Virus record (IMG/VR): IMGVR_UViG_3300045284_000107
Coordinates: 10,101-74,100 of that record
DNA length: 64,000 nt
DNA from: a virus
Taxonomy: Duplodnaviria; Caudoviricetes
Strand: one strand, 5' to 3'
In this document: piece after piece, positions 11,909-52,885 of the stretch
How the letters are laid out: each line of letters begins with the position of its first letter
How positions within the stretch are numbered: the first letter of the stretch is position 1
The notes under the pieces: generated by a model
The model's input: only the letters and a program-made list of their open reading frames with translations
Told to the model about the DNA's origin: nothing
Databases searched by the model: none
Made by a program: the position numbers and the translations under genes

Positions 11909-11913
11909 CCCCT

Positions 11914-12165: not shown

Positions 12166-12167
12166 AA

Positions 12168-12629: not shown

Positions 12630-12644
12630 AAAGGTCCATGTCCA

Positions 12645-13844: not shown

Positions 13845-13856
13845 GAAACCACAACA

Positions 13857-14417: not shown

Positions 14418-14419
14418 AA

Positions 14420-31500: not shown

Positions 31501-34500
31501 GCGCGAAACCATGTTCAGAGGGTGTACCTTTCCAAGTAGTAGCCCCAGGTCTTACATCATTAGTTATCCGTGCCGTGTATCCGGCTGGCAAATTTTTATT
31601 TGCCTCGGCCAACATGGCATTAAGTTTTTGCAATTCAGGAGTATTGGTCGGGACACTTGATGTAGGACCGCCCGGCACAGTGGTACTTGGAACTGCCCCA
31701 CCTTTTAATTTGTCGGCGGCCTCCTTTAATCTGTCTCCTGCCTCTTTTAATCCATCAGCTGCGGGCTTTATAAGTTTCGTGGCCTCGTTTTGGGCGTCGG
31801 CGGCTTTTTGTATTTTTTCGGCCGCCCCCTGCATTGCGTCCTTGGGGGTATCCTTGGTCAGACCAAGCATATTCCCAAGTGCCCGACTTAGAACCGTTCC
31901 AAGTCCGGTATCTGCCAATCCCTCAGTCTTGACCCCCAACATTGGGGCCAATTTACTGCCTAGATACTGTGACCCTAAACTAAAGGTCTCTTTTACCAAC
32001 GCTCCAGTAATTGATTTGCGGAGATCCTGTAATGTATTGGTTCCGGCCTCGCCAGTCAAAAGGCCCGTTAGGGACTTCTCAAGTCCTGACCCCACTTCAT
32101 CAAACGCACCTTTTAATAATTTGGCGCGCTTTTCATTTTCTTTTTCTATAGCCTCGCTTACGCGGGCCTGGGCGGCGATTTGTAGTTCCGCATCCTTCTC
32201 ATACAATTCGGCCAAATGCGAGAACAGTTTCTCTTTTTGTTGATCTGTGAGTCCACTAATTCTGGTCTGGGCTTCAATTCGTTTTTCTTCCTCCTCCATT
32301 ACTTTAGATGAGAACGCGGCCTCTTTAGTGGCCATCGTCTCCTTGGACATACTATGGTCCGCAACCTGAGCCTGAAGTCTATACTTCTCCTGTTGCATCC
32401 TGATCCGGTCAAGACGCTCTTGGGACGAATTAAACCTATCTAATTCACTAAACCTTCTATTTTGTTCTTCAGATAAGGCATTTACAATATCTGTTTGGGC
32501 ATTGATTTTTTGGGCGGGGGTGGCGTATTTGTCCCCAGCCGTAATTTGGGCTTCTTGAATACGTAAACGTACTATTTCCTCTAAATCGCCACGACTTTTG
32601 GCAATTGCTTCACTTAGTTTTAGTTGGGCAATTTGAGTATTTTTGGTGTCCTCTACGATACGTTTTTGGGCCTCTGCGATTTGAGCATCATAGCCAGCAC
32701 TTTGCCGCTGGTACTCAACCCCAACCCGCCATAGATCCCACCAAATCTTAGTCTTTACTGTAATGTCTGCATTTGTCTTATCAGCATCTTGCATTGCCTT
32801 GTTGAAGGCTTCGGCTTCGGCCCTCAATTGCATCATTGCAAGGGCGCGTTCTTGTTCTATAGCCGCAGGGGCCGCCGCAAGCCCCGCATGACCCATATCT
32901 CTAAGTTTGGCCTTGTTTTGCAGTTCAAAGGCCGAAAGAATATCCCTATTGGCCTGTTTTAAATCATTTGCCGACGATACTGCCGCTTCGACTACAGTTC
33001 TGTATGCTAGGATTCCCGCGCGCTCTATGTCCTCCATTGCGCGGAGGAAATCTACACTCCCCGCCTTGAAATGGGCGGCGGCATTCGCGCGCCATTCTGC
33101 AATGATCGCAGTTATAGCATCATAAGAACCCTTGCCGGTTCTGATTTGGTTTTCATAACCTTTTGCAGCTTCGGCGTATTCTTCTCGATTTGCTTCTCGG
33201 GCAAACGCAGTCTGGGCACGTTTAGCCGTTTCAACCTGTACCTGTGTCGCCTGACCTTTTTTAAGTTGTTGCTCAGTCAATGAGACTATTTCGGCCTGTA
33301 GGGCAATCTTTTCTTTTGAACCATGCGCCTCGGCGGCAATCCGTTCCTGTATCCCTGCAATGGTAATTGCGGTTTCCTCGTTTTGGATCCGCCGCATTAC
33401 CTCTTTTATTTCATTGTTGGCTTTTATTGCAGCCTCAGACTCTTGTGCCATTTCGGCGGCACGTTCGGGGTCCATACCTCCCCCGACCAACCTTTGAGTC
33501 TCTGTTCTTTGTTGTTCGCGTGCAACATTTATTGCAGCCGCTAATTGGGCCTGTAAATCTACATGTCTTGCTTGGGCTTCGGCATGGATATGTCCTAGAG
33601 CAAGTCTATGCCGCCTTTCCTCGGCAGGATCTTGTGGCATTGACCGGACTTCAGCTTCAAGAGTTCCAGCCGCGCTACGCGCCCGTTCTTCTGCGGGAGT
33701 ACCCTTTAATCTTTCCGCCGCCGATTGGGCGGCAGTCATCATGTTTACAAGTACAATCCGCTTATTTAAGGCATCATTGCCTGCGACTATAGCAAGGCCT
33801 TGGGCCTTTATGTCCTCTGTTAATCTCTGTGTAGCTTCACTATCCCCTTTTAAGGGGTCCATATATTTTTCGAATGTTTTTGCCAGTTCCTCCGCAAGAG
33901 GATTAAAGGTAGAAAATTCACTACCCGCGGCTCCAGCCCCAAATGCGAGCCAGAACATATCATTACCGGCAGTTCGCCCCGCCGTTCCCAACTCTTTTAA
34001 TTTGGGGTCAATAAGATAGGGGGCAAGAAGTCTAAACGCTTCCTCGTCGGTCTTTGCGATCTTTGCTAGTTCTACAAGGGACCGTCCAGAACTATCCACC
34101 ACCCCTTCGAGGCCGCGGAATTTAGTTATAAATTCGGCTAGTGAAACTGCGCCACCTTTGGCAGCGTTTACAAATGGCTCAATAGCCTTTGTAGGTTCAA
34201 CCCGTTGTAGGCCTGCATATCCCTTAGCCGCCTCGTCAAAACTCTGTCGTATTGCATGAGCCGCCGGAGGAAGTTTATCTAATTCAGATAATAACTCCTT
34301 TGTTGTTCCAGCGTACTCATTAGTTGATCTTTTGCTACGGTCAAATTCTGCCTCAGCCCCTGCACGTTGTTGAGGTCCAAATCCAAACCCCTGTATTGCT
34401 CCTGTTGTTTCTGTTTCACGAACCGATTTAAACCGCTGATATGCCTGTTCGAGAGCATAAACGACCACTGCAATTGCGGCCACTGCCGCTGCGGCATAAA

Positions 34501-35716
34501 CCCCCCACACCCCAGTCAATTTAGTCAGTGTATTTTCTAATATACCACTGTCGCGGGCCAGAGCGGTAAATGAGGCCACAACTTGGCCGCGCTGACCGCG
34601 CATCAGACCATCAAAGATGGCAGTCGTGTGCTGAAGACTACGACCCAGATTAAAGGACGCCCCAGTAGCGGCGTCCAATTCTTCCGTCATCCCGTGTCCA
34701 GTTACAGGATGAACTTTTAATTGACCAGCGTCATCTCGGACAAATTTAACCTGTGTCCGCGCCGCCATTTGTTCTTGGAATTTAAACTGCTCCTTGGCAA
34801 GTTTATCTTGCTCCGCGCCATACCGTTTTAAGTCGGCGACCATTTGGTCTGTGGCACGTTTCCGGGCAGCAGCCTCTGCCTCTATTTGGCGCTGTCTATC
34901 TGCAAGATTGACCTGGGCGGCCATCTGCTGTTGAAACTTAAATTGCTCTGCATTGAGTTTTTCTTGTTCGGTTTTGGCGCGCTGAATTTCTTGTATGTGC
35001 TGGGCGAGATTAGACTTGGGGGCGATCTGCGAGGCAAATTTGGCCTGTTCGCGATTTAGGCGTTCTTGTTCTTGGGTCGCCCGGCGAACATTTTCTACAT
35101 GTTCGGCTATGTTGGACTGAGGAGCCAACAATTGAATGAATTTGCTTTGTTCTTCATTAAGTCTTTGCTGGGCAACTATAGCATTGCGGACATCATCTGC
35201 ATGTTGTTTGACGTTAGATTGGGGAGAGATTTGGGAGGCAAACTTTTGGCGGGCCTGTCCCGCTTTTTCTTCTTCTTGGCCCAACCGGCGCATTTCATCA
35301 GATTGGGCCTTTAAAACGGCCAATCGTGTTGACAGTTGGGCGCTAGACTCTGATCCGTACTGACTTGCTGTACTTCCCAATTGGCGCATTATATCCAATT
35401 GGTTTTGTAATTCTGCCCCTGCCGCTTTAAGGGTCGATGAATTTACATTATTATAAAATACCTTCGCCTGTTCGGCTAAAGTCTCAAATGCAGAAGCGGT
35501 GGCGGCGACTTGGGCCTTTAATTCCTGTAAACTCTGCGTAGCGGCGTCAATGTCGGTCTGAATAACGCGCGTGGCTTGTTGGATCGCCCCAAGTCCAAGA
35601 CCACTTTGCCCAACCTGTTGTAATTGTTTTTGTAGTTCTTTTAGGCGAGTTTCAATGGCAGTGATCTGGGCACTGGCATCATCGTTAGCGCGGATATTAA
35701 ATGAAAAGTCGGCCAT
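28565..35716 (-). CDS. Tape measure protein with two M15-like peptidase modules
   Basis: 2383 aa, helical and Ala-rich, directly upstream of the distal tail gene; repeated FAxGG motifs; C-terminal NFHINAID. Confidence 0.9.
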   Translation of the reverse strand: MADFSFNIRANDDASAQITAIETRLKELQKQLQQVGQSGLGLGAIQQATRVIQTDIDAATQSLQELKAQVAATASAFETLAEQAKVFYNNVNSSTLKAAGAELQNQLDIMRQLGSTASQYGSESSAQLSTRLAVLKAQSDEMRRLGQEEEKAGQARQKFASQISPQSNVKQHADDVRNAIVAQQRLNEEQSKFIQLLAPQSNIAEHVENVRRATQEQERLNREQAKFASQIAPKSNLAQHIQEIQRAKTEQEKLNAEQFKFQQQMAAQVNLADRQRQIEAEAAARKRATDQMVADLKRYGAEQDKLAKEQFKFQEQMAARTQVKFVRDDAGQLKVHPVTGHGMTEELDAATGASFNLGRSLQHTTAIFDGLMRGQRGQVVASFTALARDSGILENTLTKLTGVWGVYAAAAVAAIAVVVYALEQAYQRFKSVRETETTGAIQGFGFGPQQRAGAEAEFDRSKRSTNEYAGTTKELLSELDKLPPAAHAIRQSFDEAAKGYAGLQRVEPTKAIEPFVNAAKGGAVSLAEFITKFRGLEGVVDSSGRSLVELAKIAKTDEEAFRLLAPYLIDPKLKELGTAGRTAGNDMFWLAFGAGAAGSEFSTFNPLAEELAKTFEKYMDPLKGDSEATQRLTEDIKAQGLAIVAGNDALNKRIVLVNMMTAAQSAAERLKGTPAEERARSAAGTLEAEVRSMPQDPAEERRHRLALGHIHAEAQARHVDLQAQLAAAINVAREQQRTETQRLVGGGMDPERAAEMAQESEAAIKANNEIKEVMRRIQNEETAITIAGIQERIAAEAHGSKEKIALQAEIVSLTEQQLKKGQATQVQVETAKRAQTAFAREANREEYAEAAKGYENQIRTGKGSYDAITAIIAEWRANAAAHFKAGSVDFLRAMEDIERAGILAYRTVVEAAVSSANDLKQANRDILSAFELQNKAKLRDMGHAGLAAAPAAIEQERALAMMQLRAEAEAFNKAMQDADKTNADITVKTKIWWDLWRVGVEYQRQSAGYDAQIAEAQKRIVEDTKNTQIAQLKLSEAIAKSRGDLEEIVRLRIQEAQITAGDKYATPAQKINAQTDIVNALSEEQNRRFSELDRFNSSQERLDRIRMQQEKYRLQAQVADHSMSKETMATKEAAFSSKVMEEEEKRIEAQTRISGLTDQQKEKLFSHLAELYEKDAELQIAAQARVSEAIEKENEKRAKLLKGAFDEVGSGLEKSLTGLLTGEAGTNTLQDLRKSITGALVKETFSLGSQYLGSKLAPMLGVKTEGLADTGLGTVLSRALGNMLGLTKDTPKDAMQGAAEKIQKAADAQNEATKLIKPAADGLKEAGDRLKEAADKLKGGAVPSTTVPGGPTSSVPTNTPELQKLNAMLAEANKNLPAGYTARITNDVRPGATTWKGTPSEHGFARAADVEVLDPEGKRVPGYMGRGGPMYRKLDEEMIKARDKLYPGQPLAVGSTFSDKPDAGHYSIGGAEAAQNELRRLGSAASTAASALAAIKAPGAGPTASPPAPTSVPTPAYALGGPVGTDTVLAWLTPGERVLTRNQRAKYDRMFPSGIERHQEGGIAGGENLTIGGMTYDTPELLKLHFLMDSANENLPRGFSTKITSANRPGSTVKGTGEPSEHGMGRAFDVGIFDAKGNLVPGMMGRGGPLYRKLDEEMLKARDRYYPGQSIAIGSTFGTPDAGHYSMGGTEAELNEMKRYRRILAERGQRFADGGLVEEIYKQNLEGEFLKYKPEPVPSLKDIGKSLIGYTDIEQSILAARRGEYLQAFGQGVVGAATGVSTLFPVARAGIGAIRAGVPIAREMAAAVPSMLADESGALKFQKLKFINPESQTVRGIEYRHMEFGAFAEGERKPVMEGDLYRKSSEKFRGIHIGLASSPLPSVNPELPGQTFAAGYGRGALGGQFIRDTFRRMFQMTGETTDLYGFRVSGGREFAGKPAEASIARESVLRGEKFDVVSMGRNGMQHHEGLTLREALKFRDLDPMAQLFPSGSMPKFADGGIVASHPGLTSLTNESRGFAPYHLVQTNPGLGKGWFWLALLGGLAVAGGIASLFGEKDKDKALAKKLLDTKDFGAEDVTQITTPLTQEQLDKYKDKAANINPYTGKTIGDKDEPSKSWWEKILPKFHGGGQVPHDMAAFLQGGEVVLPRGYAEGGVVSEITPGSPTYSPVAGGAIGTNTAVRQLTENVSNVSTKMGDLATDVTKVTGALGSMARTTGSSENGVAKLSTSMSTISGAFGGLKSIFSMFGDNKSDSGGGGGGGLLDTAGSIFGTIGKILPIFMLEQGGIIPSAEGGMIMGGGANLSRGGTLSILHPGEMVLPKHLSEAVQDGANGGGPAGMPPPPINFHINAIDQRSGAQFLMNHRDTIAGLYRNAYRNFNPNLPG
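30620..31600 (-). repeat. Duplicated ~105-aa peptidase-like module inside the TMP
   Basis: SEHGFARAADV...DAGHYSIGG (about 31280-31600) and SEHGMGRAFDV...DAGHYSMGG (about 30620-30940). Confidence 0.85.
34760..35270 (-). repeat. About four 33-aa repeats in the TMP N-terminus
   Basis: KFASQISPQSNVKQH / KFIQLLAPQSNIAEH / KFASQIAPKSNLAQH / KFQQQMAAQVNLADR. Confidence 0.75.
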
Positions 35717-35731
35717 CGAACTGACCTCTAC

Positions 35732-36160
35732 TTACAGGGTCTCGATTAGGGCGTCGTAGAGTTGGTCTTCAATCCAGGGCTTTAACTGGGCCATTCGTTG
35801 GGCCAAGATGTCAGAACCTTTGAGATACGGATGTCGCACATACCGTGTCCGCACTAGATCACCTGATTTGGCAACAAACCTCAACATTCTGGCCTTTACA
35901 GGTACGATTGGATAAAATCCGGTCTTGTCCTGGGATTCTATATATCCAATTAATGTAGTCCCTTGTTGCGTGACCCCCGAATGAATAGTGCCCGGATCAA
36001 GATATTTCGCCGGTAATGTGTGAAACAAATCCTCATGAATAGTAGTAACAATGTTGTATAATTTATTGGTTAGGGCATCCTGTATCTTTTTGGGCAGGCC
36101 CTTAAGTGCCACCAGTACCTCATCGCCCTGTACTGTGATGTCAATTAAGGAGCCTGCCAT
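35732..36160 (-). CDS. HK97 gp10-like neck / tail-completion protein
   Basis: IDITVQGDE...; YPIVPVKARMLRF...VRHP motif. Confidence 0.55.
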   Translation of the reverse strand: MAGSLIDITVQGDEVLVALKGLPKKIQDALTNKLYNIVTTIHEDLFHTLPAKYLDPGTIHSGVTQQGTTLIGYIESQDKTGFYPIVPVKARMLRFVAKSGDLVRTRYVRHPYLKGSDILAQRMAQLKPWIEDQLYDALIETL

Positions 36161-36442
36161 TTAATTTCCCCTCACAACCAAATCCACATTGCCGAATTGG
36201 TTTATAGTTTCAAGCATACGTCGGGTGTTGTTGATGTTTTCTTGGTGTTTGGTTTCGTGGGTTTGATAGCCTAAATACGCGGCTACTAACCAACCGACTG
36301 GAGGATTTTTAGCCCAAGCCCTTTGTAATAACTTACACCACTTTAAGGTGTACGTTCGTCCAATGGCTATGGGATCTCCGCCGCAGACTCCGTTGGCTGC
36401 GAGTTCGGCGATGAGTCCGCAGATGTCCCAGTCCCATTTTCC
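36161..36442 (-). CDS. -1 frame extension of the tail assembly chaperone (gpGT-like)
   Basis: Open -1 frame without its own start: GKWDWDICGLIAELAANG...TLKWCKLLQRAWAKNPPVGWLVAAYLGY; stop abuts the next gene. Confidence 0.75.
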   Translation of the reverse strand, partial: GKWDWDICGLIAELAANGVCGGDPIAIGRTYTLKWCKLLQRAWAKNPPVGWLVAAYLGYQTHETKHQENINNTRRMLETINQFGNVDLVVRGN

Positions 36443-36831
36443 GGGTTCTCCGCCGTTTCGCTCACCGCCTCCACTTCCGGGTTTGTATTGCCCTCAAACC
36501 CCGAAATATCCAGCAGTTCGTTCATTCGGCCCGGCAATTCCCGCATTTCCTTTAGGGAACATGCCTTCAAGAACTCATCTTCTGTGACGGTCATCTCAGG
36601 ATGGGAGTCCTTCAATGCTATGTACATGATGTGGATCACATTCACGGCATAGGAAATCCAATCCAAGTCAGGCCCAAGAGTAAGCAACTGACTTTTTACC
36701 TTGTCCATTACAAAGAGGTTGAGGGCCGGAACTTCTATGTCCTGGCCCCCAATAACAAATTTGGTAGTTTCGTGGGAGGTGGTCAGGCGCGGACCCAACC
36801 ACTGTGCCCCATTTCCATTTGACATGGCCAT
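36367..36831 (-). CDS. Tail assembly chaperone (gpG-like)
   Basis: Immediately downstream of the tail tube gene; acidic tail; candidate slip sites GGAAAAT (36436-36442) and AAACCCG (36478-36484). Confidence 0.75.
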   Translation of the reverse strand: MAMSNGNGAQWLGPRLTTSHETTKFVIGGQDIEVPALNLFVMDKVKSQLLTLGPDLDWISYAVNVIHIMYIALKDSHPEMTVTEDEFLKACSLKEMRELPGRMNELLDISGFEGNTNPEVEAVSETAENPENGTGTSADSSPNSQPTESAAEIP

Positions 36832-36847
36832 GATAGAACGTCCTATT

Positions 36848-37594
36848 TTAGTTGGTGGAGTTCCAACTCCCCACCGAGCCAGAGGCGTCGGCGAAAGCGG
36901 AGAAGTCAAGATCCTCGATCACATAATCATCAATACGGGTTGGGAACGTCAGGCGGTTACTGACACAAGCGTTCAAGACCAACACGACTTGGTTGTTCTC
37001 GAACTCTTGGAAGAACGTAGCCTTGAACCTGGGAGTGTTGCCCATCAGGGGGTTGCCAAGTGCAATGCTATTTCCCCCCGTAACGGTGTACGAATAGTTG
37101 ACAAGTACACCAGTTCCGGCCGGGAGCGTCCCAAACGTATACGCGCCAGTCGAAGCATTAAAAACATACTGACCGGCAGTTGGGGCGCTACTTACCGCAA
37201 TCAACTGATTGCCATTGGAACCCAAAAAGACACCCTGGTCGAGCAGAGGTGTGGAACCAGCGTTTGCCACCGTGTAACTTGCAGCGCCGGTGCCGCCCAA
37301 TGCAGAACTTTCATTCCAAGAGTATTTCAGGGATGTGGTGGTGGACAGGATCTGACCAAAAAAGAGGTCATTAAACATGCGGGCCTTGATCTCGGCAACC
37401 TTCGCTTTGCCGGTGATCTTTGTTTTGCCACGGGCAGTATCAATTGGATACTGATTGGTGGCAAACAATTCCTTCGTGTCGCCCGAGAACTCGATGTCTA
37501 CGTTTTGAAGGGCGCCAAAACGAATAGGAGTGAGGGTTCCCCCACTATCAGTTCTGATGCCTGTCAAAACGCCGGAGCCAAAACCAAATTCCAT
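36848..37594 (-). CDS. Major tail (tube) protein
   Basis: FGSGVLTG...FGALQNVDIEFSG..KEL...YP...ARGK.KITGKAK; DFSAFADASG. Confidence 0.8.
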   Translation of the reverse strand: MEFGFGSGVLTGIRTDSGGTLTPIRFGALQNVDIEFSGDTKELFATNQYPIDTARGKTKITGKAKVAEIKARMFNDLFFGQILSTTTSLKYSWNESSALGGTGAASYTVANAGSTPLLDQGVFLGSNGNQLIAVSSAPTAGQYVFNASTGAYTFGTLPAGTGVLVNYSYTVTGGNSIALGNPLMGNTPRFKATFFQEFENNQVVLVLNACVSNRLTFPTRIDDYVIEDLDFSAFADASGSVGSWNSTN

Positions 37595-37623
37595 GGAACC
37601 ATTCCTTCAATTAGAGGGTAGGA

Positions 37624-37887
37624 CTACTCGCGCTTGAGTGGCCCTTTGGTGAGGTATTCCCGCAAGTGTGAGAGAGAATTGTTCAGGTGGTTCCACGCTT
37701 CGGTATTAGCCGAGATTGGGCTGTTCCTAACGTAGTCATCAATCCACGCAGAAGATGCCGCCTGCCAAGTCTCATCTGAGATTTCTGACCCAGCAAATGG
37801 CACCTTTGGATCTGCGCCTTGATCCGCTGTAACCGTAGCCGCCGTTTCTTGTTCTTGTTGTTCCTGTTGTTCTTTATCGTCCGACAT
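37624..37887 (-). CDS. Hypothetical protein
   Basis: MSDDKEQQEQ...; AGGA RBS. Confidence 0.55.
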   Translation of the reverse strand: MSDDKEQQEQQEQETAATVTADQGADPKVPFAGSEISDETWQAASSAWIDDYVRNSPISANTEAWNHLNNSLSHLREYLTKGPLKRE

Positions 37888-37900
37888 TGGTTTTCCTTTC

Positions 37901-38392
37901 CTAAGGCAAAAGGATACGAATGGGGAGAACCAATAAGGCTTGCCCATCTATGTCTCCCGGATCACGGATGAGCATTGAGTCTTCGCGAATAATCCGCGCC
38001 CAATGTACAAGTCCCCCAAGTGTGAGTTCATTTCGGCCGGGATCATCGGGAAGTAAAACACTTTCTAAAGCCGTTTCCATAATGTCAAGTAAATCGTCCC
38101 CAATTATAGACTCGTCCCCGGTCGGGGCATAACACCAAAAACCCATATCCAAATAACGCCGAATGAGATTACCACTACCGCTTGAATTGCGGTTTTCCCG
38201 GTGCTGCACTAGAAACATGGCGGGTTGCATAGACGTGTCCACATTGATCCAGAGTTTTAATCTTCTGGAGGTGGTGGCCCAGGTCGTGTACCCATTTATA
38301 GGGGTATCAAAGGTGGCGCTTTTGGCCAAATCAAATAAACGATCCTTAATTATCTTTCTATCTCTTGGGGTGGCGGGGCCAAAATCAAACAT
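37901..38392 (-). CDS. Tail terminator-like protein
   Basis: SRRLKLW...QPAMFL...TLGGLVHWARI...GDIDGQA...PIRILLP; upstream of the tail tube gene. Confidence 0.7.
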   Translation of the reverse strand: MFDFGPATPRDRKIIKDRLFDLAKSATFDTPINGYTTWATTSRRLKLWINVDTSMQPAMFLVQHRENRNSSGSGNLIRRYLDMGFWCYAPTGDESIIGDDLLDIMETALESVLLPDDPGRNELTLGGLVHWARIIREDSMLIRDPGDIDGQALLVLPIRILLP

Positions 38393-38846
38393 TGGACGTA
38401 ACCTTTACTTTTCGCCCACCCTCAACCCCATACTCGATCCGTATATCGTCCCCCAAAATAACCTCCAATTGTCCACCCCTTTCAATTATTCCATCTAGGA
38501 CATTTTTAATTTCGGGGGCTTGCCATGAGCGAGGGTATTGGGGATCTACCTGTACATAGGCCAATTTATCATCATGACGATCAACGGGGCCAATAACCAC
38601 ATGAGAAATATCAGGACGGAGATATCTAGGCAATCTCTTAGTCTCGTCTTCATGGCTTTGACTTTCTAGCCACAAACATTTAAATTGGGCACAGGCCAGA
38701 AGTTGGGGGTCCGAGGATTTCTCCATATGACGTTCACAACCGCCGTGTACCCCCGTCCACCAACAGAGCATACGCGCAGGTTTGTTTATGTCCGGAACCC
38801 CCAACAACTTGCAGCACAAGTTACATGCGCCACAACCCAAAGTCAT
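38385..38846 (-). CDS. Second YkgJ-like CxxCxxCC protein
   Basis: CGACNLCC...C...C...ACAQFKCLWL...RPD; paralog of 729-1304. Confidence 0.7.
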   Translation of the reverse strand: MTLGCGACNLCCKLLGVPDINKPARMLCWWTGVHGGCERHMEKSSDPQLLACAQFKCLWLESQSHEDETKRLPRYLRPDISHVVIGPVDRHDDKLAYVQVDPQYPRSWQAPEIKNVLDGIIERGGQLEVILGDDIRIEYGVEGGRKVKVTSNV

Positions 38847-38997
38847 AAGTAATTATTCCTTTGGGGGATCAGTTTGGACAGGAAGATTGTCTGACGGCGG
38901 ATCTTTTTGCTCCTTTTCAGGTTCGCCATTTTCGTCAGACATATAGAATGGAAACGCCAACTGTTCTGGTTCCATCTTGTGTCCGTCCTTTCGACAA

Positions 38998-39023
38998 TAA
39001 AAAAGGCCCCGCGAGGGGGCCTT
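38998..39023 (-). terminator. Rho-independent terminator after the PEP-CTERM genes
   Basis: AAGGCCCC-GCGAG-GGGGCCTT with a T-run downstream on the - strand. Confidence 0.75.
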
Positions 39024-39050
39024 AAGTTTTGAGGGAGATCTGGAAGGTGC

Positions 39051-39830
39051 TTAGGCAAATGCCTCTTGGGACGGGGCCGGAGATTGTTCCAGTTTCTTAA
39101 ATCTTCTTCGGATAAACCCCATCGCCACGAGTCCAGTCCCCAAAAGGGCCATACTTCCCGGCTCTGGTACGTCAATGGCCGATGCGACAGGTACGATGTA
39201 GAAACTCTCGCCCCCATCAACCGCGCCATGCCATGTGGCCTGAAAGATCAGGTTATCACCCGGCTGTATAGCACAGTCGGCCAGTACGAATTGGCCACTG
39301 TCCCGACAGCCTTGTGACAAATTGAACCCTGAGATCAGGTAATCTGCCGAGCCATTACCATTTCGGATATCTGGCAACGCCACCGAGCCGGCCAAGTCAA
39401 ACACTATCTGACCAGTCGTAAGATCAATCAGGCGGAACTGATCTAGGACTTCCGACGCAGCGTGGGTCGAGTTCACGTCAATGGCGACCCCGAACGTAAA
39501 CAAGGGATCTGTGCCTTGGGCGTTTAGGAAGTTCTCCAGTTGGGTTCCGGTATAGGCCGTGCCTTGTACACCGTTCCCAAACGCATTGGTCAGATTTGAT
39601 GAGAACAGGTTGAAACTGTCATCATTACCTGTGCTGTTGAAATTATTGTACCCAAATCCTACCGGATTGTGGGCCTGTGTCGTTGCACAGATAATGCACG
39701 GATCGGAGGCCGACTGTGGTACGACTTGTGCATCGGCAAGTGGCGTCACAGTAAGTGTAGTAGCATTTGCGGGACTTAAACCCGCCACCAATGCCATTAC
39801 AGATACTGCACCTAACAAGTTCTTAATCAT
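39051..39830 (-). CDS. PEP-CTERM exported protein 2
   Basis: Signal peptide ending ANA; C-terminal VPEPGSMALLGTGLVAMGFIRRR. Confidence 0.9.
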   Translation of the reverse strand: MIKNLLGAVSVMALVAGLSPANATTLTVTPLADAQVVPQSASDPCIICATTQAHNPVGFGYNNFNSTGNDDSFNLFSSNLTNAFGNGVQGTAYTGTQLENFLNAQGTDPLFTFGVAIDVNSTHAASEVLDQFRLIDLTTGQIVFDLAGSVALPDIRNGNGSADYLISGFNLSQGCRDSGQFVLADCAIQPGDNLIFQATWHGAVDGGESFYIVPVASAIDVPEPGSMALLGTGLVAMGFIRRRFKKLEQSPAPSQEAFA

Positions 39831-39850
39831 GTTTGTAGCCTTTGATTAGG

Positions 39851-39875
39851 GGTTGGGACCAGGACGGTCCCAACC
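39851..39875. promoter_or_regulatory. Perfect 10-bp hairpin between the PEP-CTERM genes
   Basis: GGTTGGGACC-AGGAC-GGTCCCAACC. Confidence 0.55.
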
Positions 39876-39885
39876 ATTGTTAAAG

Positions 39886-40653
39886 TTAGGCAGCGAGGAG
39901 ATCTTGTTGACCAAAATCTTCCTGTTTCTTTTGGCGGCGGCGAACAAACCACCCCATACCAACAAGACCCGCACCCATAATCGCTAGGGATGACGGCTCG
40001 TTTACTGGCGTTACGTCGGAGGTGATGTCTTGGGAACGACCAGCCAAAGTGGCCTGCGCCCCAGAAATCAAATCACCCTGCGCCCACATAGTCCACGAGT
40101 ATGGACCTGTAGTAACAAACGGCACAGTTACCTGACCCGTATCGAATGAGTCAGCACCACCAACAGCCGTGAAGTTGGCAGTAGACAACTGTGTCCCAGG
40201 GAGATCAGTAACGTTTTCGGCTCCCTGCTGGTTGGTAGTGTCACCATACCATGCCAGACTTATCGTGCTGGCAGGTGCGTTGAGCCAAGTTCCACTACCC
40301 GCCAACGTAGCGGTGTTAGTCGGCGCCGCAAAGTCAGTACCACCAACCACAAACGTAATGGTCTGGGTAGTACCTGTCGTATTGGTGATCTGCGTGCTGT
40401 TAGTCAGCAGAGAGTTTGTTGGAGGTCCGATAAACTGTAACTGCGACGACCCCTCAAAAGTCACACCCCCAATGTTAGTAGAACCAAGAGTGAGGGTGCC
40501 GATGGCGTTGTTGGTATCGCAACCTGACTGATTGTCGAAGCAAGAAAACGAACTTGCCCCAACCGTAGCCGCAATCATCAGAGTGGCATTGCCGGGATTG
40601 GCCAATCCCAACAAAAGCACCCCCGCACTTACTGTACTCAAAAGATACTTCAT
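39886..40653 (-). CDS. PEP-CTERM exported protein 1
   Basis: Signal peptide ending GNA; Thr/Gly/Ser-rich; C-terminal VNEPSSLAIMGAGLVGMGWFVRRR. Confidence 0.88.
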   Translation of the reverse strand: MKYLLSTVSAGVLLLGLANPGNATLMIAATVGASSFSCFDNQSGCDTNNAIGTLTLGSTNIGGVTFEGSSQLQFIGPPTNSLLTNSTQITNTTGTTQTITFVVGGTDFAAPTNTATLAGSGTWLNAPASTISLAWYGDTTNQQGAENVTDLPGTQLSTANFTAVGGADSFDTGQVTVPFVTTGPYSWTMWAQGDLISGAQATLAGRSQDITSDVTPVNEPSSLAIMGAGLVGMGWFVRRRQKKQEDFGQQDLLAA

Positions 40654-40713
40654 TGTTACACCCAAGGGTTAGTGGTGGACGCTAGTAATTGCCATGTGTA
40701 CAGCACAGCAACC

Positions 40714-40737
40714 ATAGGCCCCGATTTAGGGGCCTAT
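40714..40737. promoter_or_regulatory. 9-bp hairpin upstream of the PEP-CTERM pair
   Basis: ATAGGCCCC-GATTTA-GGGGCCTAT. Confidence 0.45.
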
Positions 40738-41055
40738 TCCGGGGAGAAGCAAACCGCCAGGAGTTGTAAACCTGGCCTCGACATGCTTCCTAACCATTAC
40801 TGAAAAGGACGAAACCAAATCCTTAATTAGAGCCTCTCGGGCCTGGGGAGGTTCAATCATGGCACAAACCGATGCCAAATGATTTAACAATAAATTTATC
40901 ATGTCATGGGCCGGGACACCCATTTTCAAGGCCTGCCGCTCTGCCGCCGCAAGTCCGTGGTTCAATGGTTCAAGAAGTAATACCCCCAAATTTGGGGGCA
41001 AGTTAGATACTGGACCTAGATTTGCTTGGTGGGTAGTTTCAGTCTCGGTAGTCAT
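40726..41055 (-). CDS. Hypothetical protein
   Basis: TAATG coupling to the adaptor gene. Confidence 0.55.
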   Translation of the reverse strand: MTTETETTHQANLGPVSNLPPNLGVLLLEPLNHGLAAAERQALKMGVPAHDMINLLLNHLASVCAMIEPPQAREALIKDLVSSFSVMVRKHVEARFTTPGGLLLPGIGP

Positions 41056-41945
41056 TAGATAAATGCTCCCATTGCCGGTGGTAGCGGGGAACAATACGGA
41101 CCTAGTATTCCTTTTACAAAGTCCGACAAACCATCACTCATGGAGTAAGTTATACTTTCTTGGGCGGCCAACGATTGAGATCTTACACCCCCCGCGCGTC
41201 TTCGATAGGATACTCTATCCTGTATAGTTTCAAGACACGCTTGTTCCAAATCAGAAGGTATGTACCCATAACTGATAAGAACGTTTTGGCCCGCATCGGA
41301 GGCCGAGAATGTATATTTATTCCTGGCCGGAGTGGCATTTGGATCTGGGGGAATGTACTGCCCCACCTGCAATGTAGCTGTATCGGCGGGCATTGCCACG
41401 AGTAAACCTCTGCCGGTAGCATACACCACACCTTCGTCCGTTGCCCAAATACCAAAAGTAGAAAGCGGCACAATCTCAAAAGGTGTCAATAACGGAACCA
41501 TATATGGCTCATCCACAACGCCATACCCGGCCTTGTACTTGACCACTACGCCCTGGGTACTCCAAATGTAAAAGGCCCCGCCTGTAAGTCCAATAACCGC
41601 GGCCACTCCCGGCGGAATGCCATTCCAGGGCTGAAACCTATAACCATAAGGATTTGCCCCAGTATCTATTTGGTTTGCTTGGGGCGCAAATTTCATAGGC
41701 TGCCCAGAAATATGCAAAGATTGCAATTCCAATAATGGATAATTAGGCAGAACTAACTGTTGTGTCCCACTTCCATTAAATTGTTCTGTATAGACGCGGG
41801 GTGTCATTACGCCCCGGTTGAGATATGAGGATATGCTTCGAGACACTCTGGTAATCATACCTCCTAGGACGGCAGCACTGGGCGGAGAGTCCAGATATTG
41901 CCGGGCCGTTTCCATAGTGGTCAGATCACCACTTGTCAAGGACAT
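41055..41945 (-). CDS. Head-tail adaptor (connector) protein with an insertion
   Basis: DLTT...ARQYL...I.RVSR.I.SYLNR; Y.AGY; IPSDLEQACLE. Confidence 0.75.
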   Translation of the reverse strand: MSLTSGDLTTMETARQYLDSPPSAAVLGGMITRVSRSISSYLNRGVMTPRVYTEQFNGSGTQQLVLPNYPLLELQSLHISGQPMKFAPQANQIDTGANPYGYRFQPWNGIPPGVAAVIGLTGGAFYIWSTQGVVVKYKAGYGVVDEPYMVPLLTPFEIVPLSTFGIWATDEGVVYATGRGLLVAMPADTATLQVGQYIPPDPNATPARNKYTFSASDAGQNVLISYGYIPSDLEQACLETIQDRVSYRRRAGGVRSQSLAAQESITYSMSDGLSDFVKGILGPYCSPLPPAMGAFI

Positions 41946-42328
41946 TACTTCTTTCCTTTTTCCTCAGCCTGATCTGCCTGCAAATTCTTAAATTCGGCCT
42001 CAAGATTAAAGAACTTTAATTTCCATTCATCAATTTCCATCTTGGTCGCCGCCATAGCGCCCTTTAGGGCCTCGTTCTCGACCTTTAGTCCCTCGACCTG
42101 ACCCGCCAATTGTGACAGGGCCGTATCTTTTATGAGATCATCTTTGGGCAGGTCTTTGGGATTACCAATTGGCTTTCCTTGTCCAAATCCTGGTAAGTCC
42201 AGAATTATGGGGGCAAAGTGATCTGGTGCCCTGAAACAATCCCGGCCATCCTCATCCTTGGCCTCAGGAAAGAAATTCTGCAACTGTACACTTATTTCGC
42301 GGGTTCCTTCGGGAAATCTAAACCACAT
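41945..42328 (-). CDS. Hypothetical head-associated protein with C-terminal coiled coil
   Basis: Position after the capsid gene; heptad C-terminus. Confidence 0.55.
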   Translation of the reverse strand: MWFRFPEGTREISVQLQNFFPEAKDEDGRDCFRAPDHFAPIILDLPGFGQGKPIGNPKDLPKDDLIKDTALSQLAGQVEGLKVENEALKGAMAATKMEIDEWKLKFFNLEAEFKNLQADQAEEKGKK

Positions 42329-42934
42329 CTAAACGGCCCTCTCATACTGCAAGGTCGGGGACTTAAAGGGCGAAATCAATGCAAACCCACTATCATTTAA
42401 AATTATCTTTACAGAATGTTTCTGGCAAAATGGATAAAGAAAACTCAAACCGCGCCGATGTGGCATAAGTTCAGGCTCAACCTTACCTTGACCCCAAGGT
42501 AGATCCGCCCAGAACCTCAAATCATCAATTAAAACACAGTAACTCCCATCTGGTCGGGCGGCTCTAATGGCGTCTAATTCTTTTCTAATTGGCATTCGTT
42601 CTATCTCAGACCGTTCGGTACTGGACTGGCCATATAAATCAGGACAGTGAGCATCGAGCCAGAAAAACACCGGATCACTAAACCGTAATTCTTCTAACAA
42701 GCGGGGCAACTCCTCTGCACTGTTGCCTTGAATAATTCTAACCCGTGGATCATGTGAAAAGTCACTTTTGGCCTTTTGAACTACCTCGGGCCATATCTCT
42801 ATTGAAAACAACCAAGAGAACTTTTTCCCGGCCGCGATCCTGAGACTATCTCCATTGCCATATCCAGTTTCCACAAAGATTGGAAACCGACTAATAAATT
42901 TGTCAGATAGAGGAAAATTAAGTAGGCTTCCCAT
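42329..42934 (-). CDS. Class I SAM-dependent methyltransferase-like protein
   Basis: FVETGYGNGDS, SIE, IIQGNS, FWLDAH, LIDD. Confidence 0.75.
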   Translation of the reverse strand: MGSLLNFPLSDKFISRFPIFVETGYGNGDSLRIAAGKKFSWLFSIEIWPEVVQKAKSDFSHDPRVRIIQGNSAEELPRLLEELRFSDPVFFWLDAHCPDLYGQSSTERSEIERMPIRKELDAIRAARPDGSYCVLIDDLRFWADLPWGQGKVEPELMPHRRGLSFLYPFCQKHSVKIILNDSGFALISPFKSPTLQYERAV

Positions 42935-43027
42935 TAGGAGTTTCTAAGTTCAGATTAACGTGGTAGTATAATAGGGCGGGTGGGCCGTGTCAATAGTGAG
43001 AAAGCGACCCACCCAACCCCGCCCCAA

Positions 43028-44683
43028 CTAGAATACCATAGATCCCGAGCCGGGGTTCTTGTTAGTAATCGCCGCGAATGCAGGTGAGAAGTACATCGCG
43101 AAAACTTCATCGACGTACACACCATACTCATACCGCCGGGCACGCCAGGGCCACTGTATCTGATAGTAGTCTTGCCGTACACGGGCCTCCAACAAGTTTG
43201 CCACCCCCGAGAGTTCGTATGGGGAAGTATCAGACCAGAAGATAATTGTCCCGGCGGGCAAATACGGATGAACTTCAACATCAAGGGTGTTGTTGAAGAA
43301 CTTATTCATGTAGGACGTAACCTTTCGGCCTGCAACTATACGTCCCGTCGCTTCGTCGGCGTCAAAGAGGATACGGTAAATGTTCGAGGCCGCACTCTGG
43401 TTCAACATGGCCCCAAACGTATCCAGCATATCCTGTCCGGACATCAAGATGCGCGAGAAACCGATCTTATATTGGTCATACGCAGCCTGGAGCAAAAGAT
43501 CGAACTCTACGATATTGGAACCACTAATCGTGAGTCCGGTATTGCCCGTTGGCAAGGCATAGATGAGACTGCCACCCGCCGACGTACTAATGGCAGAGTT
43601 CAGAACCGGATTGGTAGACATTGCCCGGCCGGGGTCCATACCCATAACCGCGCCAAAAATCTGCGGAATAATCCCATCCGGTACAAGGATGTTGGTGGAA
43701 TTATCCGCAGGAGCGGCGGCCACATAGATGGCATTTAGGGGCTGGTTAGTTGCAGCGGGAAGTCCCCTGAGAATGGCCTGATTGCTGGGAGTGATACCGG
43801 CCAAATACATGGTGCCAGGACTTGCAGCCGTGGAACCGGCGTACCAGGCATATGCCATCGCGCCAGGAACCCGCGCAACAGTAGCAGTTACGACTTGGGT
43901 GCCCGTGGGCGTGACGGTGGCAATAGCGGAGGGTTGGGCACTACCACCACCATAAGTATCAGATGTACCATCCGCATTGATCTTGGTGACTTGGCCGGGG
44001 ACACCACCAATAGCATTTGCCGACTGATAGGTGGTATATCCAGTAACGCCCATCCCCGACAGTGCAACCGCCGCCACATAAATGGCGCCGCCGAAAGTCC
44101 CAACTGCGGAGGATGTACCCGCGAGGGTGGGAGTTGGCGTAGTGCCAAGTGGCATCGAGGCATTGCCATTAATGAGGATCTTTTCCTCATCAATCATCAA
44201 CGAACGCAGAGCCGACTGTACACTAATGCCCAAGGCTTCTGGGTTCAAGTTCCTGGCACCAAGTCGGGCCTCGAACGTGACCGAGCTTTCCAGACCCAAG
44301 GTCTTAAATGCCGCCGTCAAGTCCTGTTCCGCGATTGCAATTCGCGCGCCACGATTACCCTCGGACACCCCAGAGGAAATACCGTTGACGTTAATTGCAG
44401 TAACACGCTTCCAGTGATAGGCATTACCACCGTCCGCACTCACCCGTGGAAGTCTTGAGATCCTGGGGATCAACTCCCGGTAGGGATAGAGCATTTGAAC
44501 GACAGGCTTCAGGTCGTACCACAAAAGATTTGTGGCTTGGGAAATGGTATCTGCCTTTGACAGAATACCCTCTGCGTTCTTTTCGAGGCCTTTTACAAAC
44601 CCTTCATTTGCAAGGAGGGCCTGTACAAATTCGTTGCCAATTCCGTTACTGCCCACGAAGGGCACATTGTATCCAGTAGTCAT
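43028..44683 (-). CDS. Major capsid protein
   Basis: 551 aa directly after protease/scaffold; YDL.P, W..VT.I, GVSEG.R, EVHPYLPAGTI, YEYGVY.DE. Confidence 0.8.
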   Translation of the reverse strand: MTTGYNVPFVGSNGIGNEFVQALLANEGFVKGLEKNAEGILSKADTISQATNLLWYDLKPVVQMLYPYRELIPRISRLPRVSADGGNAYHWKRVTAINVNGISSGVSEGNRGARIAIAEQDLTAAFKTLGLESSVTFEARLGARNLNPEALGISVQSALRSLMIDEEKILINGNASMPLGTTPTPTLAGTSSAVGTFGGAIYVAAVALSGMGVTGYTTYQSANAIGGVPGQVTKINADGTSDTYGGGSAQPSAIATVTPTGTQVVTATVARVPGAMAYAWYAGSTAASPGTMYLAGITPSNQAILRGLPAATNQPLNAIYVAAAPADNSTNILVPDGIIPQIFGAVMGMDPGRAMSTNPVLNSAISTSAGGSLIYALPTGNTGLTISGSNIVEFDLLLQAAYDQYKIGFSRILMSGQDMLDTFGAMLNQSAASNIYRILFDADEATGRIVAGRKVTSYMNKFFNNTLDVEVHPYLPAGTIIFWSDTSPYELSGVANLLEARVRQDYYQIQWPWRARRYEYGVYVDEVFAMYFSPAFAAITNKNPGSGSMVF

Positions 44684-44714
44684 TTCAAAATCCTCTCAAT
44701 CTTGGGTCTGGGGC

Positions 44715-46781
44715 TTAGGCTTTGGCACCCGCCGTGCCATGAAAGCTGGGATCAAAGACTTGGCGGCCATGACCATTCACGATCATATTGCCAATGACCT
44801 TACCAACGGCACTTTTGCGGATACTTTCATCATCCGAAACCAGGGCGTGTTCACTCACCCCCTCAAACAAGGAGGTGGAGTCCCTGGCGCTATTGCCCAA
44901 TCCCAACTTTGTGGTATCGAACAAATGTGGTTTGCGACCGGAACTAGGCATTGCGGGCATCTTTTCCAGAAGGTCCACCTTGGCCTCTGCCGCCGCCGCC
45001 CGCGTTAGGGCTTGAACTTCAGCCTGGGACCAATATGTCTTGGCCATTTTCTTTGGGCCAGTCTCAAGACCCCAATCAATAGGATCAGAACCGCCTCCCT
45101 TACTGCCCGGTCCCGCATGTACCAGTTCGCTCTCGCTGAGAGCGTCTACACCGGCTGGGACTCGATAAAACTCATTGCCCGTTGTAGGACTTTGTTCAGT
45201 TTGACCCGTCCTACCTGCCGCCTTTTTGATTTGCATATCGGCAGCCTTAACGAACGTCTTGAGTGTACTGAGATCGCCGTAGGCCTTTTGCAAGTATTTC
45301 ATTGCCGTTTCGTGATCGAAGTCACCACTCTCGGGTTTGGCCTTTTTAGCCATCTTGGACATATAGGCTTCTTTGTGCATAGAATGCGCGGCCTTAATCG
45401 CAGCCGAGCACTCTTTCATGGTGGACTTGGCCTTTTTCATGTTGCCACGGGCCATATCCATACGGGCCACTCTTGACGGCGGACGACCTGCCTTCGCCAA
45501 GTGCTCCTCCAACAACTTCGACAGTTCATCTTTGTCAATCTGTACAGTCATCTCGCCGCTCCTCTGGGTTGGGACATATGATTTCCTAAGTTCAAGTTCG
45601 GGGCCATCCCTTAAAGGCTGGGAACGTCTCAATTCCAACCCAGGAGGAAGCTCATGGCCAGACTTCTCCATTTGACCCTCGACGGGTCCGCGCCCATCAT
45701 CGGCACCGAGGGTTAAAAAGGACGGCTGTGCCGAATTTAAACTTACGGATGCGGACACGGCCTTTTCGGCCTTTTCTTCGGCCTGTCTTATAAGTTTTTT
45801 AGCCAGTTTCCGTTTAAAGTTCGGGGGAAGTTTAATTCCCAATTGGGCGGCACGATTTTTCAGCAGGGTTTTGGACTTGCCCGCCTTTTCGGACTTTTTG
45901 GCACAGATGGGACAATTTGCTGTGTCATGGGCGGCACATTTCATATCGTCCGTTTTTGCTATGGGTGGCCCCGTATCACAATCAATCTCGTGGACATGGG
46001 TGTCATCTTCGGATTTTTTGGTTGGGGGAAAATGAAACCCATCATTGGCCTGTCCGGGTTCACTTTTGGCCATTATTTCTACAGCTTGGGCCATTTTAGT
46101 TAGGGCGCGGGAGGCCGGGTTCCGTCCTGACATGACTTTGACAAGATAGCCTCCATTTTCAGCCGATCGTTCCTTATATCTTTTAGCAACTTCAATTCTG
46201 CATTCAGGATTTGCCGGGCGATCCACGACAGACACTTCGATAAGCTCAATCTCAGTGATAGTATTGCCAGTCTTCGCGAGCTTTTTCCCGCCAATCGAAA
46301 AACCCTTATAAACTTGGTCAAGGCACTTCTGGGCCGCCGTAGGATCGGTGATACGAGCAGTAAGAAAGAGACCTCTATCATCTACATGGGACTCCGTACC
46401 TGTGCCTACGGCAGAGGGCTGGTGCATTTCGCGAATATTTCGCCATTCCCAATATCCCGGAAGGGCTTTTCGTACTGCATCTAAAGATACAATTTCATTG
46501 TCTAGGTCCAACGCTGGGGTCGAGGCATACCCGGCGACAGTTACCGATCCGTCCTTTTGCCGTTCGACCTTTGACAATGGCAAGAACAGATTGAAATTAT
46601 CAGTCATGGTCGGGGCCTTTCCTAATTTGTTAACGGTGGCCCACGCCTCAGCGAAGGCTCTACTCTCATCCTTGTGTCTAGCATACGATGAGGTCCATAC
46701 ATGCCGCCACTGTCGGCGCTTTGAACCTTTTAATTTTGCCCGTACTGTTGGGGGCAGGGATCTGTTGGTAGGATATGGCAA
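44715..46781 (-). CDS. Prohead protease-scaffold fusion with N-terminal ChaB-like domain
   Basis: MPYPTNRSLPPTVR...AFAEAWA (ChaB-like); GYAST, IREMH, GFSIGG, EVSVVDRPANP (protease). Confidence 0.85.
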   Translation of the reverse strand: MPYPTNRSLPPTVRAKLKGSKRRQWRHVWTSSYARHKDESRAFAEAWATVNKLGKAPTMTDNFNLFLPLSKVERQKDGSVTVAGYASTPALDLDNEIVSLDAVRKALPGYWEWRNIREMHQPSAVGTGTESHVDDRGLFLTARITDPTAAQKCLDQVYKGFSIGGKKLAKTGNTITEIELIEVSVVDRPANPECRIEVAKRYKERSAENGGYLVKVMSGRNPASRALTKMAQAVEIMAKSEPGQANDGFHFPPTKKSEDDTHVHEIDCDTGPPIAKTDDMKCAAHDTANCPICAKKSEKAGKSKTLLKNRAAQLGIKLPPNFKRKLAKKLIRQAEEKAEKAVSASVSLNSAQPSFLTLGADDGRGPVEGQMEKSGHELPPGLELRRSQPLRDGPELELRKSYVPTQRSGEMTVQIDKDELSKLLEEHLAKAGRPPSRVARMDMARGNMKKAKSTMKECSAAIKAAHSMHKEAYMSKMAKKAKPESGDFDHETAMKYLQKAYGDLSTLKTFVKAADMQIKKAAGRTGQTEQSPTTGNEFYRVPAGVDALSESELVHAGPGSKGGGSDPIDWGLETGPKKMAKTYWSQAEVQALTRAAAAEAKVDLLEKMPAMPSSGRKPHLFDTTKLGLGNSARDSTSLFEGVSEHALVSDDESIRKSAVGKVIGNMIVNGHGRQVFDPSFHGTAGAKA

Positions 46782-51692: not shown

Positions 51693-51917
51693 CTATGGCA
51701 CTAGGCCGGTGGAAGTCTGAAGCAGGAGTTGGGCCATCGTCTTCATCGCATCAGAACGGACCCCCGTACCTGTGAGAGTGGTTGTGTTGCCGGTGATTGG
51801 ATTATTTGTGACTGCGAGGGTGGCACTTGTACCCCTACTATCCGTAATAGTGTAGGTGGTCACGGCTCCAACTACCGCTTTGCTGGTATAATTGTTTGAG
51901 CCTTCATTTGCTGGCAT
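51693..51917 (-). CDS. 74-aa Thr-rich protein, paralog of the LamG protein's C-terminus
   Basis: Ends AQLLLQTSTGLVP versus VQLMLQLSTGLVP. Confidence 0.65.
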   Translation of the reverse strand: MPANEGSNNYTSKAVVGAVTTYTITDSRGTSATLAVTNNPITGNTTTLTGTGVRSDAMKTMAQLLLQTSTGLVP

Positions 51918-52686: not shown

Positions 52687-52885
52687 GGTACAACTTTGCG
52701 CGTACCGCACAATCCTTTGCCTCTAAAAGTTTTCTCAAGGCTGTGGTACGTTCAGGGTTTCGGGGCAAAGTCTCAACAATCCACTCTGCAATGGAACAAA
52801 ACGGATTACTAACCGATTGTAGTGTGGCGGGCAGGTGGCTGTATTCAAAAAATTGTAGCATGGGTTCGCGGGTTTTATCGCTCAT
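52679..52885 (-). CDS. Small conserved helical phage protein
   Basis: FFEYSHLP..LQ.VS.PF...A......P..PER..ALRKLLEAKDCAVRA. Confidence 0.75.
   Translation of the reverse strand: MSDKTREPMLQFFEYSHLPATLQSVSNPFCSIAEWIVETLPRNPERTTALRKLLEAKDCAVRAKLYHD

Follow-up and report, generated by a model that had tools for sequence, protein, structure and literature searches.

The DNA examined here is a 64,000-nucleotide stretch of an uncultured soil phage of the Caudoviricetes (positions 10,101 to 74,100 of the 74.1-kb IMG/VR record IMGVR_UViG_3300045284_000107); "the window" below means this whole stretch, and all coordinates refer to it. Inside the virion operon of this phage lie two neighbouring genes, PEP2 and PEP1, placed head to tail in that order on the minus strand, whose products resemble substrates of bacterial exosortases. 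A first-pass annotation made from the sequence alone had described them as two tandem exported PEP-CTERM proteins of about 255 residues and had proposed that the phage borrows the host exosortase to redecorate the infected cell. The genes are where that annotation put them and encode proteins of 255 residues (PEP2, counted from an ATG; an alternative TTG start at 40665 would add four residues and give 259) and 259 residues (PEP1). Both proteins begin with a signal peptide, assigned by inspection and alignment, in which a basic, Lys-containing start and a hydrophobic core precede a conserved mature N-terminus; the residues just before the mature N-terminus are ANA in PEP1 and GNA in PEP2. Inspection of the N-termini revealed no lipobox in either protein. 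A 128-residue open reading frame (ORF) at 38843-39229, which lies in another frame and overlaps the 3′ end of PEP1, was treated as spurious.

The two C-terminal tails share one layout, consisting of a V-P/N-E-P motif (VPEP in PEP1, VNEP in PEP2), a Gly/Leu-rich hydrophobic transmembrane helix and an RRR cluster. The first-pass annotation had suggested a check with the hidden Markov models for this signal, and both tails score above the curated cut-offs, at 28.8 bits (PEP1) and 22.1 bits (PEP2) against 20.7 for PF07589 and at 25.4 and 19.6 against 16 for TIGR02595. By motif, transmembrane helix, basic cluster and curated cut-off, both proteins thus carry a PEP-CTERM C-terminal homology domain. 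The earlier description of the sorting signals as complete holds, with the small correction that neither tag is terminal: PEP2 continues for 15 residues beyond the RRR and ends in LAA, and PEP1 continues for 16 and ends in FA. Alanine is the last residue of 74 of the 120 PEP1-family and 18 of the 30 PEP2-family proteins, while it makes up only 11-14% of their residues overall, and AA is the commonest final pair in the two families. This Ala-rich end should face the cytoplasm and resembles ssrA-type degrons, which end in LAA.

When PEP1 and PEP2 are compared by BLASTP, the tails alone align and the bodies are unrelated, so the possibility that the two genes are duplicates of each other was rejected. 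The family alignments show the motifs PQSxSxPCxxC, NGNGxxDY and DGxESFY to be invariant in the PEP1 body, and conserved Cys pairs are present in both bodies, which fits an exported, oxidised protein. Neither protein reaches the NCBIfam cut-off of the named PEP-CTERM cargo families NF038129, floc_PepA NF033554, THxN NF038125 or EDSAP-1 NF041538. The best scores against the respective cut-offs are 32.9/100, 30.2/65, 27.3/85 and 25.6/80 (PEP1 reaches 30.2 against 65 for NF038129 and 17.4 against 80 for PepA, and PEP2 reaches 25.6 against 80 for PepA), and they derive mostly from the tail.

Comparison with related phages indicates that this phage lineage acquired the pair recently, by insertion, a point that goes beyond the first-pass annotation. 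The segment that holds it separates two conserved genes, g122 and g153. In nine relatives (L001, L002, L004, L006, L011, L024, L026, L069 and L073) the g122 homologue, which is 54-59% identical, always lies directly ahead of the g153 homologue, and the distance between them is 8-43 bp versus 1,879 bp in the window. The capsid lineage was sampled as 79 IMG/VR loci, found by capsid similarity at no more than 77% identity, and 44 genomic loci; relatives of PEP1 or PEP2 were found in none of the 79 viral loci (tblastn, 1e-5) and in none of the 44 genomic ones.

The inserted segment also contains three hairpins and a small ORF (see the table). All three hairpins that had been drawn around the two genes are real, and the last of them is a canonical terminator. 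Hairpin 1 sits at the left edge of the insertion and folds at -29.2 kcal/mol (40690-40760, z = -2.2), but it is not a canonical terminator because no T run follows the stem. Hairpin 2 folds at -20.8 kcal/mol (z = -3.73; 0 of 200 shuffles fold as well), and its predicted role may be that of an RNA stabiliser or a processing site. Hairpin 3, in which an 8-bp stem with six GC pairs is followed by a T run, closes the cassette, and the PEP1 homologues in the contigs L094 and L102 have the same kind of terminator downstream. The putative 40-codon ORF beyond it has a plausible ribosome-binding site and no counterpart at the g122/g153 junction of the nine relatives.

Table. Features of the PEP2-PEP1 insertion and of the surrounding virion module, in window coordinates
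Feature	Position	Strand	Description
PEP2	39886-40653	-	255 aa counted from ATG
PEP1	39051-39830	-	259 aa
Inserted segment	38847-40725	-	1,879 bp; hairpin 1, PEP2, hairpin 2, PEP1, terminator, 40-codon ORF
Hairpin 1	40714-40737	-	9-bp GC-rich stem across the stop codon of upstream g122
Hairpin 2	39851-39875	-	between PEP2 and PEP1; 10-bp stem, 5-nt loop, without T run
Hairpin 3, intrinsic terminator	stem 39003-39023; with T run 38996-39023	-	just past PEP1; closes the cassette
Small ORF (putative)	38853-38975	-	40 codons, acidic, Pro-rich; between terminator and g153, inside the insert
g122 (upstream flank)	40726-41094	-	conserved small connector-region gene, downstream of the head-tail adaptor
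g153 (downstream flank)	38385-38846	-	conserved Cys-rich virion-module gene; phrog_9155 (weak match)
Head-tail adaptor	41055-41945	-	phrog_442
Capsid	43028-44683	-	phrog_13692
Protease-containing scaffold-like protein	44715-46781	-	
Tube-like protein	36848-37594	-	
Tape measure	28565-35716	-	2,383 aa
FkbM-type methyltransferase	51904-52710	-	PF05050, 72.9 bits
TPR-plus-GT9 glycosyltransferase-like protein	52882-54285	-	

Both proteins belong to families that appear to be phage-borne and that were found here only in phage DNA. A collection of 5.8 billion proteins holds 240 homologues of PEP1 at E <= 0.001, the closest of which include P0001 at 84% identity; among the 120 homologues listed none comes from an NCBI or UniRef source, and all trace to JGI, ENA or Logan metagenomes. 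A motif query found PEP1 relatives at 73 IMG/VR loci, and the same query confirmed none in 185,579 species genomes, taken as one genome per species. A profile of the PEP1 body without its tail (A5) matched 0 of 401 sampled Pseudomonadota genomes and, as a positive control, 5 of 5 viral records. Run against 1.84 billion representative proteins, the PEP1 body profile retrieved 293 clusters, nearly all of them shorter than about 270 residues. PEP2 has 29 homologues and about 38 full-length IMG/VR loci, and none of its relatives was confirmed in the species genomes, a scan made with a closer 16-sequence alignment since the full set of 29 was too diverse. Neither protein matches any of 50,697 GenBank phage records. 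Ten distant family members, looked up by cluster, had metagenome sources alone, plus one NCBI record, and the look-alike clusters in the ESM Atlas carry mostly a Uroviricota label and in a minority a Pseudomonadota one.

The genes around the PEP1 homologues represent many different phage backbones, with three kinds of large terminase, portal, a capsid-protease fusion, an amidase endolysin, RecE- and NinB-type recombination genes and collagen-like fibres. Tagged ORFs stand in tandem at 13 of 111 loci, and the majority of loci have either PEP1 or PEP2 alone. Six other contigs repeat the arrangement in which PEP1 follows PEP2: in the five viral contigs L083, L094, L097, L100 and L102 the reading frames share 4 or 13 nt, which suggests translational coupling, and in L246 a spacer of about 90 nt separates them. 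The genes that flank the pair differ across the five viral contigs, and the flanks of the L246 pair match no other window gene.

The tails are interchangeable in the PEP1 family, a point that the first-pass annotation had missed. In the PEP2 family all 29 relatives, with identities as low as 31%, keep E219 and P220, and the alignment places the sorting motif with the best-conserved columns of the family. The PEP1 body carries at least three complete types of tail, VPEP...RRR, VPIPA/VPLPA...RRKK and VPGP..GAGLPGL...RRR. Sorted by crude regular expressions, under which the VPGP and VPLPA-like classes may grade into each other, the family holds 46 PEP, 41 VPGP and 31 VPLPA-like tails; the contrast between PEP and non-PEP tails is robust. 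In an NCBIfam scan of 66 PEP1-family members TIGR02595 matched 26 and TIGR03370 (VPLPA-CTERM) matched 11, and every other sorting-signal model matched four of the 66 at most. The VPGP..GAGLPGL...RRR tail, carried by about a third of the family, thus seems to be unmodelled and may constitute a distinct, uncatalogued class of sorting signal (P0016, P0040, P0052 and others).

We built a maximum-likelihood tree of the body without the tail (121 rows) and placed the tail classes on it. On this tree at least 22 changes are required to explain the three labels and 12 to explain the PEP label alone, and strongly supported branches force at least four of these 12. The clade that includes the window protein consists of four sequences, all with PEP tails, and its sister is a clade of 15 rows with 14 VPLPA-like tails and one unclassified. 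The swapping of complete tail units between classes argues that specific host machinery reads the motif, and it would fit a role of the tail classes as tags matched to different host sorting enzymes.

AlphaFold models built from the family alignments are confident, with a mean pLDDT (predicted local distance difference test) of 78 for PEP1 and 88 for PEP2, and both predict a beta-sandwich followed by a single long C-terminal helix. The predicted PEP2 sandwich is a jelly roll spanning residues ~25-213, and its best fold matches are Bdellovibrio Bd1399 (8okh, Z 9.3), Bacteroides SGBP-B (7kwc, Z 8.5) and the carbohydrate-binding module (CBM) family CBM61 (Z 8.0), after which several carbohydrate-binding domains of phage fibres are ranked. 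For the PEP1 model Foldseek returned no match at E <= 0.001 in the PDB, and a wide structure search gave generic jelly-roll matches, the best being the CBM-like domain of 8pxt at Z 7.3. The top-ranked PDB matches have 5-11% sequence identity, and neither PEP1 nor PEP2 matches a Pfam CBM family. That the bodies bind glycans is a reasonable guess from these models.

Exosortase sorting is widespread in bacteria of soil, sediment and biofilms and is poorly understood experimentally. In common with the cargo of the bacterial PEP-CTERM/exosortase (EpsH, XrtA) system, of which the Zoogloea resiniphila flocculation protein PepA (NF033554) is an example, the phage proteins have a signal peptide, a small and diverse body and a tail that passes the curated models, and they share with it a soil habitat and the occurrence of several tagged proteins together. 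Haft et al. (2006, PMC1569441) state that PEP-CTERM proteins as a rule have a signal peptide at the N-terminus and describe a conserved upstream element of sigma-54 type for the PEP-CTERM genes of Proteobacteria. The phage genes differ from the bacterial system in that they come without an exosortase, belong to body families not found in reference bacterial genomes, lack the sigma-54 element and encode tails that run past the basic cluster. In the contig L083, upstream of its PEP2-like gene (~9215-9232), we noted the sequence TGGCACG-N4-GAGCA, which has the exact sigma-54 GG-to-GC spacing, and sigma-54 control, as reported for the bacterial genes, may have been retained in some phage cassettes. 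Eleven of the 66 scanned PEP1-family members carry VPLPA-CTERM tails on the same body, whereas the window copies are of the classical PEP-CTERM kind. The resemblance to CBMs and surface glycan-binding proteins (Bd1399, SGBP-B, CBM61, CBM16) lies in the jelly-roll beta-sandwich common to the bodies and is at the level of the fold only. Searches of the full text in PubMed Central and bioRxiv gave no account of phage-borne PEP-CTERM families; a preprint from 2026 refers to a PEP-CTERM domain within a Dehalococcoides mobile element.

A second comparison is with the accessory genes called morons. Phage cargo that modifies the host envelope includes Bor and Lom of lambda, the Cor lipoproteins and the Llp lipoprotein of T5, which blocks the phage's own receptor FhuA. 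The PEP pair resembles morons in being an extra unit between genes that are adjacent in relatives and in having its own terminator. It also resembles such surface-modifying cargo in that its products are predicted to be exported to the envelope and not built into the virion, with a plausible change of adsorption at the infected cell or its debris. Unlike Bor, Lom, Cor and Llp, the two proteins have an exosortase tag in place of a lipobox or beta-barrel and have lectin-like heads, and sigma-70 and sigma-54 scans detected no promoter belonging to the pair itself.

We therefore consider it probable that the two genes are mobile, moron-like phage cargo addressed to the host exosortase pathway, with heads that resemble glycan-binding domains. 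The simplest assumption is that the pair would be transcribed as part of the late virion operon and end at the terminator that it brings along, and the precursors would be exported by Sec through their N-terminal signal peptides. The C-terminal helix and Arg cluster would then retain each precursor in the inner membrane with its body in the periplasm, until the host exosortase recognises the PEP motif and removes the anchor, so that the body moves to the outer surface or into the exopolysaccharide layer. There the beta-sandwich might bind glycan and alter the surface of the infected cell, its debris or the matrix. The most plausible purpose would be to mask or coat the polysaccharide receptor or the matrix so that progeny virions or later phages are not adsorbed. 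The idea in the first-pass annotation that the phage borrows the host exosortase is partly supported, and the particular purposes that it named (superinfection exclusion, aggregation of new hosts or sortase jamming) are conjectural. A wider proposal, which we put forward tentatively and with less conviction than the reading just given, is that soil phages share a mobile pool of lectin-like proteins with interchangeable exosortase tags fitted to the enzyme of the host, with which they re-coat the infected cell or its slime layer.

Several observations weigh against this assignment to the exosortase pathway. A tail that runs on beyond the Arg cluster is believed to be unusual for a PEP-CTERM signal, and the 13-16 residues that come after the cluster mean that the tag is not at the extreme C-terminus. 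As the first-pass annotation had noted, there is no exosortase in the window, where none of the 63 ORFs has more than two hydrophobic segments (the search covered the 64-kb window, and the remaining ~10 kb of the record lies outside it), and PF09721 has no match in the five viral records that carry the pair. Since the phage has no exosortase, any processing of the tails must use a host enzyme, and to our knowledge exosortase is the only enzyme that reads the PEP-CTERM tag. An exosortase-positive host is an expectation; of five genomes with prophages of the same capsid lineage (61-65% capsid identity), only two have PF09721, which is a weak and indirect hint. No sigma-70 consensus was found in the gaps before PEP1 or PEP2, and the sigma-54 pattern TGGCAC-N5-TTGC (up to two mismatches) occurs in neither upstream gap and over the whole window at a count expected by chance; these scans covered promoters of the sigma-70 and sigma-54 types. 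None of the runs listed with the stretch is an RNA run. The Z scores of 7.3 for PEP1 and 9.3 for PEP2 are in the range that indicates a common arrangement and not a function. Finally, a few of the ESM Atlas look-alike clusters are labelled mostly Bacteria (Pseudomonadota), and the phage-only distribution may partly reflect sampling. The Pseudomonadota labels suggest that copies may in some cases lie in bacterial bins or prophages, and they hint at the phylum of the host.

A simpler account of the tail is that it serves as a membrane anchor only, leaving exported proteins tethered to the inner membrane and facing the periplasm without exosortase processing. Such proteins might bind peptidoglycan or periplasmic glycans, block the DNA entry of other phages or modulate lysis, and phage-encoded membrane-tethered exclusion proteins are well known. 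The lack of an exosortase in the window and in the five records with the pair, the atypical residues after the Arg cluster and the AlphaFold prediction of the tail as one long helix would all agree with an anchor. We nevertheless consider this account unlikely, because a plain anchor needs no PEP motif, yet the E-P pair is invariant in the PEP2 family, and because the tails of the PEP1 family are replaced whole by other classes of sorting signal that match curated models. If the tail did no more than anchor the protein in the membrane, it would be hard to see why a complete, class-specific motif should be under selection. It is also conceivable, but improbable in our judgement, that the proteins are decoys, overproduced late in infection so as to jam the host exosortase, shut down host surface and floc proteins, loosen the matrix and aid release. 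The position of the genes in an operon that would be highly expressed late, and the presence of the same kind of tag on two different cargo proteins, are in keeping with a decoy, as is the requirement of Zoogloea flocs for both PEP-CTERM proteins and exopolysaccharide, as summarised in PMC12642866, which cites Gao et al. (2018). A conserved folded body of 190 residues would be unnecessary for jamming, however, and the conservation of both bodies extends across hundreds of homologues and includes many invariant residues.

The location of the genes between connector and tail genes, together with the phage tail-fibre and decoration domains in the fold lists, could be taken to mean that the proteins are parts of the virion, either capsid decorations or tail-fibre adhesins. 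This is very improbable: a cleavable signal peptide and a C-terminal anchor would remove the proteins from the cytoplasm, where tailed phages are assembled, the genes are absent from all 123 relatives that have the same virion module, and their locations in other phages are regions for replication, lysis or packaging. Least credible of all is that host DNA was joined to a phage contig through an assembly error, a concern that the first-pass annotation had itself raised. PEP-CTERM proteins are classically bacterial, and the insert has a guanine-cytosine (GC) content of 0.515, a little higher than its flanks (0.48-0.495). By this value, however, which is inside the 5-95% range of the window for segments of that length (0.464-0.528), the insert does not look like raw host DNA, and the phage genes to either side of it lie on its strand as well. 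The region 36500-43000 is present without a single difference in single Logan contigs of two soil runs from two studies, with pieces of 14.3 kb and 54.3 kb; these runs, which were put together by a different assembler, may include the source sample, but their contigs cross both insertion junctions and thereby make mis-assembly very unlikely. More than 100 other phage contigs, moreover, carry members of the two families, no reference genome does, and we regard PEP1 and PEP2 as phage genes.

The two substrate-like families appear to be phage-only, to move between unrelated backbones and to change their address tag repeatedly, which suggests that phages exploit the pathway as a route to the cell surface. 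We know of very few exosortase substrates with an established role, and the pair would offer compact, well-conserved test substrates for exosortase biochemistry. The families possibly represent a new class of soil-phage factors for surface remodelling or exclusion. If the proposal is correct, phages would be exploiting the exosortase as a host factor, and the tail class would be a readable marker of the type of host envelope that might help to assign uncultured phages to hosts.

The minus-strand surroundings of the pair form a siphovirus-type virion module that includes tail-tip proteins, and the earlier placement of the pair between neck and tail genes is borne out by its neighbours, which include the head-tail adaptor, capsid, tube-like protein and tape measure. 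The left part of the window carries nuclease, primase-like and ribonucleotide reductase genes on the plus strand. As had been reported from the sequence, no lysogeny genes are visible, with no integrase or repressor among the 20 ORFs tested, and this result together with the phage's own polymerase-region genes and ribonucleotide reductase fits a virulent lifestyle. The window contains no tRNA genes. Positions 36000-46000 have no megablast match among GenBank phages; the nearest cultured phages by capsid are Brevundimonas phages at 36% identity, and prophage-like capsid relatives at up to 65% identity occur in metagenome-assembled genomes of Acetobacteraceae and other Proteobacteria and in one Paraburkholderia isolate.

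Two further genes, for an FkbM-type methyltransferase and a TPR-plus-GT9 glycosyltransferase-like protein, are located among the head and packaging genes, and judging by these domains the same phage seems to invest in glycan chemistry more widely. Considered alongside the two lectin-like PEP-CTERM proteins, they point to an accessory set directed at glycans. A 201-residue ORF without a Pfam match (42329-42934, minus strand) separates the capsid gene from the conserved gene that comes next. It is found in 0 of the 79 capsid-lineage relatives and has relatives in L097 and L100, which also have the PEP pair, and its locus resembles another cargo slot of this module. Gaps of 0.4-4.6 kb are seen at neighbouring junctions in further members of the capsid lineage (L019 at 11647-16274, and L011 and L012 between the adaptor and g122 homologues), so that several cargo slots seem to exist in the virion operon.

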